DNA of 27,874 bases. It comes from a virus. Its lineage: Duplodnaviria > Caudoviricetes. A program made the translations under genes and the position numbers. The notes beneath the pieces were generated by a model. It did no database searches. It was not told the origin of the DNA and was given only the letters and a program-made list of their open reading frames with translations. This document shows positions 4,711 through 25,725 of this stretch, one piece after another. Every line of letters starts with the position of its first letter. The first letter of the stretch is position 1. The stretch is from positions 1 through 27,874 of the IMG/VR virus record IMGVR_UViG_3300044708_000154, one strand, 5' to 3'.

Positions 4711-4748
4711 ACAACCTCTTGACATCCGACCATTCAGCCGTTCATTCT
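4711..4748 (+). promoter_or_regulatory. Promoter for leaderless mRNA
   Basis: AACCTC-TTGACA-18-CATTCT-7 nt-ATG. Confidence 0.75.
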
Positions 4749-4755
4749 CTTGTCC

Positions 4756-5040
4756 ATGCCTACCGACAACCCCAATCCCCGCACGCACGTAGTCGCCCCA
4801 TTGACCTTGGTCCTCGACACGGTGAATGAGATGTCCCTCGTGGACGCGGCTCTAGCCTGGGTAACCAAGGAAATGGAACTCTTCAAGGAACAGCACCCAG
4901 ACTTCCTGGACCCCGATCGCGACGCAGCCGTGGCCAGCCTCAAGGAAAAGTGGGCAAAAGAGGACCGGCGCATCACTGACGCCCTCAACGGCGCCGGGGT
5001 GGCGAAGGGAGACAAGGTAGTCTTCGCCCCCGTGGACTAG
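4756..5040 (+). CDS. Hypothetical protein (94 aa), leaderless
   Basis: High-GC3 codon bias; promoter immediately upstream. Confidence 0.85.
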   Translation: MPTDNPNPRTHVVAPLTLVLDTVNEMSLVDAALAWVTKEMELFKEQHPDFLDPDRDAAVASLKEKWAKEDRRITDALNGAGVAKGDKVVFAPVD

Positions 5041-5051
5041 TCGACGGCCGT

Positions 5052-5089
5052 CTAACCACTTGACATCCACCCCTCCCTCCAACCAGACT
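5052..5089 (+). promoter_or_regulatory. Promoter for leaderless mRNA
   Basis: AACCAC-TTGACA-18-CAGACT-6 nt-ATG. Confidence 0.8.
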
Positions 5090-5095
5090 CCCTCC

Positions 5096-5431
5096 ATGCT
5101 CAAGACCAAGTGGCAGTCCGCCAACGTCGAGGTCACGGTAGCCGTCCAGTGCAACCTGTGCGGAGAGGAGTTCCCCGTCGAGGCGGACGACGGGTTGCGA
5201 GCCCAGGAGGTCCATCTCCTGGAGGCCGAGGGAGGGTTCGCCGGGGTCTTTCCGCCCGACCTGATCCGCTTCCGCTGGCACTGCTGCGGTCCGTGCCTAC
5301 GCAAATGGCTGCATGCCTGCGCGGTTCCTCCGGAGTCGTTCGAGCGCTCACTGTCGATCGGCAACACCCTCAGGCCGATCTCATACGACACGTGGTTCGG
5401 GCCACAATCCACTGGCAACCCAACCCCTTGA
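5096..5431 (+). CDS. Zn-binding hypothetical protein, leaderless
   Basis: CNLCG...CGPC motifs. Confidence 0.85.
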   Translation: MLKTKWQSANVEVTVAVQCNLCGEEFPVEADDGLRAQEVHLLEAEGGFAGVFPPDLIRFRWHCCGPCLRKWLHACAVPPESFERSLSIGNTLRPISYDTWFGPQSTGNPTP

Positions 5432-5457
5432 CAACCAATCCACCCCGCCGGCATACT
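5420..5457 (+). promoter_or_regulatory. Promoter for leaderless mRNA and probably the downstream RNA cluster
   Basis: AACCCC-TTGACA-18-CATACT-6 nt-ATG. Confidence 0.8.
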
Positions 5458-5463
5458 CGGGCC

Positions 5464-5619
5464 ATGAGTGAGCCCGACCGCACGATCCTCTTCACGACTT
5501 GTGGGGCGCTGCTGATCGGAACTCTCGGCGCGTACCTGCTCGGTAACATCGGCGGTCTCTGCGGTTCGGTCATCGGTGCGATCCTTGGGTGCTGCTGCTC
5601 GGATTGCTTCACTGGGTGA
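5464..5619 (+). CDS. 51-aa membrane protein with glycine-zipper pattern
   Basis: GxxxGxxxG hydrophobic helices; leaderless start. Confidence 0.75.
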   Translation: MSEPDRTILFTTCGALLIGTLGAYLLGNIGGLCGSVIGAILGCCCSDCFTG

Positions 5620-5705
5620 GGAGACGCGGCGCCTCAGCTCTCCCGGTAGCGCCTCTACCTTGGCGAAATATGGCAAACCGGGGACTACTACTTGAAGCCC
5701 AGCAG

Positions 5706-5805
5706 TGGTCGCAGGAAGCGCGAGGAAATGCCGCCGGGAGGCACAACATCCTGGGTTGACGAAGGCGGGCGAGCGCCTTGGCGTCCTGGCAGCATCCTGC
5801 GACCA
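5706..5805 (+). ncRNA. Candidate tRNA-like four-way-junction RNA on an extended stem
   Basis: 11-bp perfect terminal IR TGGTCGCAGGA/TCCTGCGACCA enclosing three hairpins. Confidence 0.6.
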
Positions 5806-5820
5806 ACTAGTGGACTTCAC

Positions 5821-5897
5821 GGGCGAGTAGTTCAACCGGAAAGAACGTGAGTTTCCTAAACTCATGGATGGGAGTTCGAACCTCTCCTCGCCCTCCA
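5821..5897 (+). tRNA. tRNA-Arg (anticodon CCT)
   Basis: Acceptor GGGCGAG/CTCGCCC, D arm GTTC/GAAC, anticodon arm TGAGT-TTCCTAA-ACTCA, T arm GGGAG-TTCGAAC-CTCTC, encoded CCA. Confidence 0.95.
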
Positions 5898-5911
5898 ACC
5901 GACAGGACCCC

Positions 5912-6217
5912 ATGATCGACTACCTCCCAGACCCCGACAACCCAAACCGCCGCTTCAGCCTCTCCTACCAGGATCTCCGGGCCGAGCACGGGCGCATGGT
6001 CGCCCTGGACGACACCGCCTTCCTGGCCGACCTCCCTGCCGCCGCGCACCTGGCCTGCATCATCGCGTGGCTGAAGGAACTCGGGCCGAACGCCACGATC
6101 GGTGATTGCGGGATCGTCCATGAGCTGGTCCACCTCATCCACATGGGGCCGGACGGATCGACGACCTCGCTCGCCGAGATCCGGCAGTCCTTCGCGCACC
6201 TGCTGAGATTGGCTTAA
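5912..6217 (+). CDS. Hypothetical protein with HExxH motif (HELVH)
   Basis: AGGA RBS; codon bias; the ORF-track start at 5864 falls inside the tRNA. Confidence 0.85.
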   Translation: MIDYLPDPDNPNRRFSLSYQDLRAEHGRMVALDDTAFLADLPAAAHLACIIAWLKELGPNATIGDCGIVHELVHLIHMGPDGSTTSLAEIRQSFAHLLRLA

Positions 6218-6250
6218 CCCCTTGACAAACTCCTCGTCCTGGTTCAACCT
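6214..6250 (+). promoter_or_regulatory. Promoter for leaderless mRNA
   Basis: AACCCC-TTGACA-17-CAACCT-6 nt-ATG. Confidence 0.7.
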
Positions 6251-25246: not shown

Positions 25247-25432
25247 ATGCCGGCACCGCACCACACCATCAAGGTACAGGTTAGGATCGTCCGGGAAGTC
25301 GACGGCATGGAGACGCTACTCCTGGCTGATCAGTCGACCGCCGGCCCAGAACCGGTCTCGCAAGCGGAGCTGGAGATCCTCCTGTCCGACGCTTCTTCGG
25401 CAGCCGCCGAGGAGTACGGTAACTCGATCTGA
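25247..25432 (+). CDS. Small hypothetical protein
   Basis: GGGGA RBS; TGATG coupling to the next gene. Confidence 0.7.
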   Translation: MPAPHHTIKVQVRIVREVDGMETLLLADQSTAGPEPVSQAELEILLSDASSAAAEEYGNSI

Positions 25433-25725
25433 TGGCCTACCAGCGACCCTCTCATCGCGACACGAACGGCGAACAGCCGGAGGTGTGCATGCTCTGTGGC
25501 AACGTCATCGAGCATACGCGCCTGCGTGTCGCGGAAGTGGAGGGTCTTCAGGGCGTGCGGATGTGCGATCTGCACCCATTCGAGGCGGCCACGATCTTCT
25601 ACCCGAGCCGTAACGACTACCTCCGCATGGCCCCGATTCCTGACGCTCCCGAGGCTGGTCAGCGGTTGTGGCCTATCGGTGCAGACTTCAACGACCTGGG
25701 CTGGATTGACGAGGACATCCCCTGA
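25432..25725 (+). CDS. Virion-module Zn-finger protein
   Basis: CMLCG...GVRMCDLH. Confidence 0.8.
   Translation: MAYQRPSHRDTNGEQPEVCMLCGNVIEHTRLRVAEVEGLQGVRMCDLHPFEAATIFYPSRNDYLRMAPIPDAPEAGQRLWPIGADFNDLGWIDEDIP

Follow-up and report, generated by a model that had tools for sequence, protein, structure and literature searches.

A stem with a branched head in the leader of a phage tRNA-Arg(CCT) gene: a candidate processing element

Directly upstream of a phage tRNA-Arg(CCT) gene lies a 127-base imperfect inverted repeat (positions 5693-5819) that is predicted to form a stem of 29 pairs carrying a branched head of 57 bases. The stem base ends at 5819, two bases 5' of the tRNA. Directly readable in the sequence are the inverted repeat, the stop of its base next to the tRNA and the head's three arms; the structure is real, probably transcribed and uncatalogued, belongs to a phage pre-tRNA leader and falls outside all families tested. 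Its function we deduce from position and precedent. As the best explanation, which we advance tentatively, the element may be a stem-loop that serves processing within the pre-tRNA leader and gives rise to a small stable RNA, in analogy to the tRNA region of T4. Being a single sequence for which no homologue was found, it has the standing of a candidate. A preliminary description had taken 5706-5805 for a tRNA mimic acting either as a decoy for anticodon nucleases or as a Y-like RNA; what we retain of it is a non-coding element that has structure and is tied to the tRNA, while the Y RNA reading had to be dropped and the decoy gained no positive support. For decades no role has been known for small stable RNAs beside phage tRNAs, such as T4 RNA C and RNA D, and the element represents a compact case with testable predictions, namely its ends, its dependence on RNase III and RNase P and the pairing of loop 1 with loop 2.

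Results and discussion

Genomic setting

The window, i.e. the whole 27,874-base viral record, is linear and estimated to be 38% complete. It contains terminase, portal and head genes and one single tRNA gene, that of tRNA-Arg(CCT) at 5821-5897. The element is held in a 200-base gap between a 51-aa ORF and this tRNA, in a region that is non-coding on the plus strand. The features of the locus are listed below.

5428-5457, plus strand: predicted sigma70-like promoter, TTGACA-18-CATACT (1 found, 0.2 expected)
5464-5619, plus strand: hydrophobic, glycine-rich ORF of 51 aa, from its translation likely the leaderless first gene of the transcript
5641-5646, plus strand: alternative partner of 5678-5683 in constrained folds, its pairing leaving the tRNA free to fold
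5678-5692, plus strand: outer arm on the left side, matching tRNA bases 2-19 (5822-5839) in register through 14 complementary pairs, from pair probabilities
5693-5726, plus strand: 5' strand of the irregular 29-pair stem, including the perfect 11-bp segment 5706-5716
5729-5743, plus strand: arm 1, 4 bp, with a 7-nt loop (5733-5739) that has a D-loop-like GG and a final A and is complementary to loop 2
5744-5758, plus strand: arm 2, 4 bp, with a 7-nt loop (5748-5754) that has T and then CCT (5750-5752)
5762-5779, plus strand: arm 3, 6 bp, with a 6-nt loop lacking a T-loop TTC, formed in both competing folds (pair probabilities 0.8-0.99)
5784-5819, plus strand: 3' strand of the stem, comprising a paired CCA (5803-5805) and tRNA leader positions -2 to -6
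5821-5897, plus strand: intact tRNA-Arg(CCT) with encoded CCA (63.1 bits)
5912-6217, plus strand: 101-aa protein of PHROG 7083 (function unknown), likely the last gene before the promoter-like site at 6222

The promoter-like site at 5428-5457 belongs to a repeated family that precedes small genes, and the transcript likely starts near 5464. Copies of the motif (AACCCC or similar, followed by TTGACA) are found at 4719, 5060, 5428, 6222 and 8594 on the plus strand and at 2682 on the minus strand. Those at 4719, 5060, 5428 and 6222 are followed by a CANNCT box after 17-18 bases and by an ATG 6-8 bases beyond the box, an arrangement that suggests leaderless early genes. The 51-aa peptide shows repeated GxxxG and is glycine-zipper-like; it has no PHROG match, and its Atlas matches all lie below 0.8, so that each of them is a lead only. 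The discriminator position of the tRNA (5894) is T, which is unusual among arginine tRNAs. On the minus strand, an open frame of 353 aa (4852-5913) spans both the element and the tRNA. Since no family, cluster or homologue was found for it, a coding role of the element through this frame was rejected; it is likely a shadow frame.

The stem

The perfect 11-bp stem of the preliminary description, formed by 5706-5716 and 5795-5805, and its extensions by GC/GC and AGGA/TCCT are all present in the sequence. The CCA end, on the other hand, is no end: because the stem continues past the limits of 5706-5805, running on through 5693-5705 and 5807-5819, the CCA at 5803-5805 is internal and paired with 5706-5708. 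Pair probabilities along the stem amount to 0.72-1.0, with the exception of one shared A, and its longest unbroken helix is the 11-bp segment, with bulges elsewhere.

The 100 bases from 5706 to 5805 fold with a z score of -5.54, a stability reached by none of 200 shuffles. For 5691-5820 the z score is -5.82, the opposite strand being about equal (-5.44), and in the alignment the mismatches of the stem show no bias towards the RNA strand. Of 1000 shuffles, 40 do as well as the sequence in extending the pairing beyond the 11-bp core up to the beginning of the tRNA, and 1 does as well over the full length into the D loop of the tRNA. For the outer pairing (5678-5692) taken alone, 75 to 401 controls out of 2000 reach the same level, the number varying with the type of control (p 0.04-0.2). 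Among 5555 windows ranked by folding, the element and the stretch 25446-25545 hold ranks 1 and 2; inside a predicted ORF, the latter folds as well as the element (z -5.44 versus -4.82 for the element with the same script). The ORF around this second hairpin extends from 25432 to 25725.

Several of these values bear on the alternative that the element is a decayed inverted duplication, or a palindrome acting at the level of DNA, without RNA function and with middle arms that are partly due to chance. Such an origin is unlikely in our judgement. It would fit the similar folding of both strands and the complete lack of G-U pairs in the cloverleaf arms and the 5706-5805 stem, and the left arm can be aligned with the reverse complement of the leader plus the tRNA start such that 41 of 56 columns are identical. 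Moreover, no homologue was found, neither tRNA nor element is present in any of three terminase relatives, and the head alone folds with a z score of only -0.76. Against a mere palindrome, however, three perfect arms occur in just 0.02-0.3% of shuffles, the stem base halts two bases before the tRNA, and the element sits in the 200-base gap downstream of a promoter-like site. That the element arose by duplicating the upstream gap or the tRNA in tandem was rejected (p 0.2-0.66).

The head and its competing folds

The three Watson-Crick arms that had been described at 5729-5743, 5744-5758 and 5762-5779 are borne out by our analysis, as are the T followed by CCT (5750-5752) in the middle 7-nt loop and the identity of this triplet with the anticodon of the tRNA-Arg(CCT) 15 nt downstream of 5805. 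When the 57-nt head is shuffled 5000 times, three perfect arms totalling at least 14 bp turn up in 0.32% of cases, and in 0.02% if the loops are to have 6-8 nt. Energy prediction nevertheless does not favour the cloverleaf composed of these arms: it comes out at -51.5 kcal/mol, whereas a three-way junction that pairs loop 1 with loop 2 reaches -56.7 kcal/mol. The share of the cloverleaf in the ensemble is 7e-5, the pair probability of arm 2 is 0.03, and in the predicted lowest-energy fold the CCU is buried by the pairing of the two loops. The nearest-neighbour model cannot score a kiss between loop 1 and loop 2 within the cloverleaf; a contact of this type could stabilise the cloverleaf. The complementarity of the two loops comprises 6 bp and has a chance probability of about 0.01, compared to about 0.02 for the match of CCT to the tRNA, and complementarity to loop 1 may itself be a rival explanation for the CCU in loop 2.

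C4 RNAs are cloverleaves whose paired loop targets lie on both sides in the same transcript. An antisense RNA of this C4/CI type, with loops that pair with sites in its own transcript, is an explanation to which we assign a very slight chance. The stretch 5967-5983 of the same predicted transcript is complementary first to loop 2 and then to loop 1, and a complement of loop 1 is found at 5641. The former site, however, ranks only 7th of 2084 and is located within coding sequence away from the start codon, the complement of loop 2 occurs 14 times on the contig, a paired upstream target is lacking, and the Rfam C4 model yields no match at E 10.

At 1838-1856, 17 of 19 bases match arm 2 and its 3' flank, which may be chance; the region around this site does not fold (z 0.29).

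Comparison with tRNA, Y RNAs and ribozymes

The element is not a canonical tRNA and has no TTCG, as the preliminary description had stated; both ARAGORN and RF00005 find 5821-5897 only. No TTCRA T loop is present on the plus strand of 5678-5820, the one TTCAA on the minus strand lying outside the arm loops, and there is no 7-bp acceptor stem with a free NCCA end, the CCA being paired inside the 29-pair stem. Scored over 5620-5820 with a covariance model made from 28 tRNA-Arg(CCT) genes, the sequence does not exceed 1.5 bits, and the element does not resemble the tRNA next to it in sequence (p 0.66). The head further departs from tRNA in having no U8 or A14, an A at 32, a G at 37/38 and an anticodon stem of 4 bp, and arm 3 is followed by 4 unpaired bases before the stem resumes. 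With a mapping chosen post hoc, 8 of 14 unpaired tRNA invariants are in place (p 0.04-0.05), and the invariants together with the matching CCT reach a joint p of 0.0002-0.001, likewise post hoc. A weak likeness to tRNA remains, and the head may have a distant tRNA origin. Judged by its modelled arms, it would be tRNA-shaped in two dimensions, but without the T loop that is needed for the L shape.

These data are central to the decoy, according to which a tRNA-derived cloverleaf soaks up, by its U-CCU loop, a host nuclease that attacks the anticodon of tRNA-Arg, while the adjoining tRNA replaces that of the host. If true, a CCU-loop decoy would be a new kind of anti-defence RNA. In its favour, the arms follow each other in the order D, anticodon and T with stem and loop sizes of 4/7, 4/7 and 6/6, the post hoc joint score of invariants and CCT is low, and phage tRNAs have been proposed to counter anticodon nucleases in the available text of PMC10264068. 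The same text, however, describes resistant tRNAs, and the word decoy is absent from this paper. The missing T-loop TTC, U8 and A14, the A32, the short anticodon stem and the paired CCA speak against the decoy, as do the tRNA-Arg(CCT) model, which scores 1.5 bits or less here, the lack of an RF00005 match and of sequence likeness to the neighbouring tRNA, and the pairing of CCU with loop 1 in the lowest-energy fold. A literature search returned no paper combining all terms for a decoy RNA of such kind. Overall, we give the decoy a fairly small chance.

YrlA and YrlB are defined, in the sections available of Chen et al. 2014 (PMC4201824), by the motif GNCGAAN0-1G close to the 5' end, by T and D stem-loops that are conserved and by a Ro60 gene on the same strand and no more than 4 kb away. 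With the element they share a long stem and a multi-arm head, and this likeness would be in line with a YrlA-like Y RNA binding host Ro60. Using this motif, we found one copy with a single mismatch at 5708-5715 and an exact one at 5758-5765. The exact copy is in the middle of the molecule, however, a T stem-loop is lacking, and no TROVE (Ro60) match is present on the contig, which covers 5.7 kb upstream and 22 kb downstream. In addition, the YrlB model gives no match at E 10, and no match of YrlA type was obtained among 4227 Rfam families. As neither the 5' motif nor the T and the D stem-loop nor the Ro60 gene are as in these RNAs, the Y RNA reading is highly improbable. A hammerhead ribozyme in any permutation was also rejected: its core is CUGAnGA with stems I-III according to the accessible part of PMC10085705, and CTGAnGA is found on neither strand of 5620-5900.

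The element as a processing module of the pre-tRNA leader

For the processing stem-loop that we tentatively prefer, the following course of events is proposed. A single transcript would run from the promoter-like site at 5428 through the 51-aa ORF, the element and the tRNA to the 101-aa ORF. The stem is predicted to engage -2 to -6 of the leader in pairing, a stretch that RNase P requires single-stranded. Access for RNase P would then be provided either by an RNase III-type nuclease that cuts double strands or by the stem base breathing, and the cuts would leave stem and head as a small stable RNA in the manner of RNA C and RNA D of T4.

If the tRNA is folded, the leader is unpaired at -2 to -6 with a probability of at most 0.28, and the opening of -1 to -7 costs about 5 kcal/mol. 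Compared with other leaders, this masking ranks 7th among 53, and it is thus real but not exceptional. The inverted-repeat score of the leader (47) is the highest of 55 viral tRNA leaders, the next being 33, in windows tuned to this locus. Substrates of RNase III comprise about two helical turns of duplex; the element offers 29 pairs interrupted by bulges, of which 11 form the longest run. Precedent for the single steps comes from the parts available of three papers, according to which E. coli RNase III participates in the maturation of T4 tRNAs (PMC4810235), the T4 tRNA region gives rise to two small RNAs of unknown roles (PMC3014915), and a designed hairpin over the tRNA leader blocks RNase P (PMC7897497). 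Against a processing module, both strands fold alike, the mismatches favour neither strand, the masking of the leader is not exceptional, no unbroken helix exceeds 11 bp, the stretch 25446-25545 within an ORF folds as strongly, and no homologue that might show covariation was found.

The closest parallel in phage T4 is provided by rnaC (species 1) and rnaD (species 2), which, like the element, are non-coding RNAs of 120-140 bases adjoining a phage tRNA-Arg gene, as seen from the T4 annotation, and have no known role. Like the element, rnaC is a strongly folding multi-arm RNA (z -4.57). In contrast to the element, rnaC and rnaD are located downstream of the tRNA, rnaC has a true T arm, and neither is matched by the model of the element, whose best hit (E 0.79) is elsewhere in the T4 stretch. 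In the RNase III stems of rRNA operons and phage transcripts (PMC4810235 for rRNA operons and T4 tRNAs), a structured RNA beside a tRNA is likewise looped out by a long and irregular duplex; in the element, however, the longest helix is 11 bp, the head belongs to no known family and the cleavage is putative.

The pairing of the outer left arm leads to a related explanation, to which we attach a small chance: a two-state switch that gates tRNA maturation, in which 5678-5692 pairs either with tRNA bases 2-19 (off) or, through its first bases, with 5641-5646 (on), while the head senses a protein, an RNA or a ligand. In line with this, the two states are only about 3 kcal/mol apart (-115.3 versus -112.4), the acceptor stem is formed in about 10% of the ensemble, the outer pairing continues in register with the stem, and the head itself has two folds. 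A designed version works, as reported in the available text of Ender et al. 2021 (PMC7897497); in this RNase P riboswitch, as in the element, the 3' strand of a hairpin is the masked 5' leader of the tRNA. The designed riboswitch is synthetic and short and uses a known aptamer, whereas the element has 29 pairs and no known aptamer and its switching is hypothetical. Apart from this, the outer pairing lacks significance when taken by itself (75-401 of 2000 controls), and for 3 of the 54 other leaders, including that of T4 tRNA-Gln, prediction pairs an equal number of tRNA bases. No path connects the head, over 29 pairs, with the base of the stem, and the Rfam scan revealed no ligand or aptamer family. 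If the stem does gate tRNA maturation, it would be the natural counterpart of a switch that in the literature searched is found as a design alone. The combination of both ideas, an RNA-only tRNA-defence cassette in which a U-CCU decoy cloverleaf sits on a stem that keeps the replacement tRNA-Arg unprocessed until it is opened, has a smaller chance still; if true, a naturally occurring RNase P switch would here be joined to an anticodon decoy.

Homologue searches

The RNA search model R1 was built from this one sequence and has little reach, and the blanks that it draws are therefore only weak evidence of rarity. Searches with blastn in phages and plasmids gave no match covering more than 30% of the query. 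In viral contigs, the arm pattern occurs at 11 loci (tRNA at 0 of 11, best model E 0.72), the loop pattern at 35 loci (tRNA at 0 of 35, best E 0.064 away from the pattern site) and the stem pattern at 45 loci (tRNA at 0 of 45), the best of the latter, L238, reaching 29.5 bits while being selected by the pattern and having arm 3 broken at 4 pairs. The element is absent from 57 viral tRNA-Arg(CCT) loci (best E 2.3) and from the whole records of the three terminase relatives (best E 1.5). At 30 loci of the downstream 101-aa protein there is no blastn likeness and 1 distant tRNA-Cys, the RNA model having been run on 2 of these 30. A prokaryote genome collection contains 0 pattern matches and no terminase relative. 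Closer relatives exist as proteins: a terminase of 99% identity is encoded on a contig of 53,682 bases, and six proteins from contigs of 1-54 kb are 67-90% identical to ORF 5912-6217.

In a scan of all 4227 Rfam families the tRNA alone was matched. Among sequencing runs, the best match is a soil metagenome, which may be where this DNA comes from; no RNA run is listed as a match, and none of the contigs examined includes a piece that spans the element. The element may be among the candidates of Fremin et al. 2023 (PMC10690425); in 3 of the 6 text files of its supplements no match was found.

Two further observations were made on the loci collected. In the five viral contigs L217, L233, L235, L245 and L248, around 190-300, a shared long hairpin with a variable interior encloses a Shine-Dalgarno-like AGGAG and the following ATG. 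At L127, L128, L139, L153, L164, L165 and other viral tRNA-Arg(CCT) loci, a direct copy of the 5' half of the tRNA is located about 115-130 bases upstream, and these copies are possibly remnants of attachment sites.
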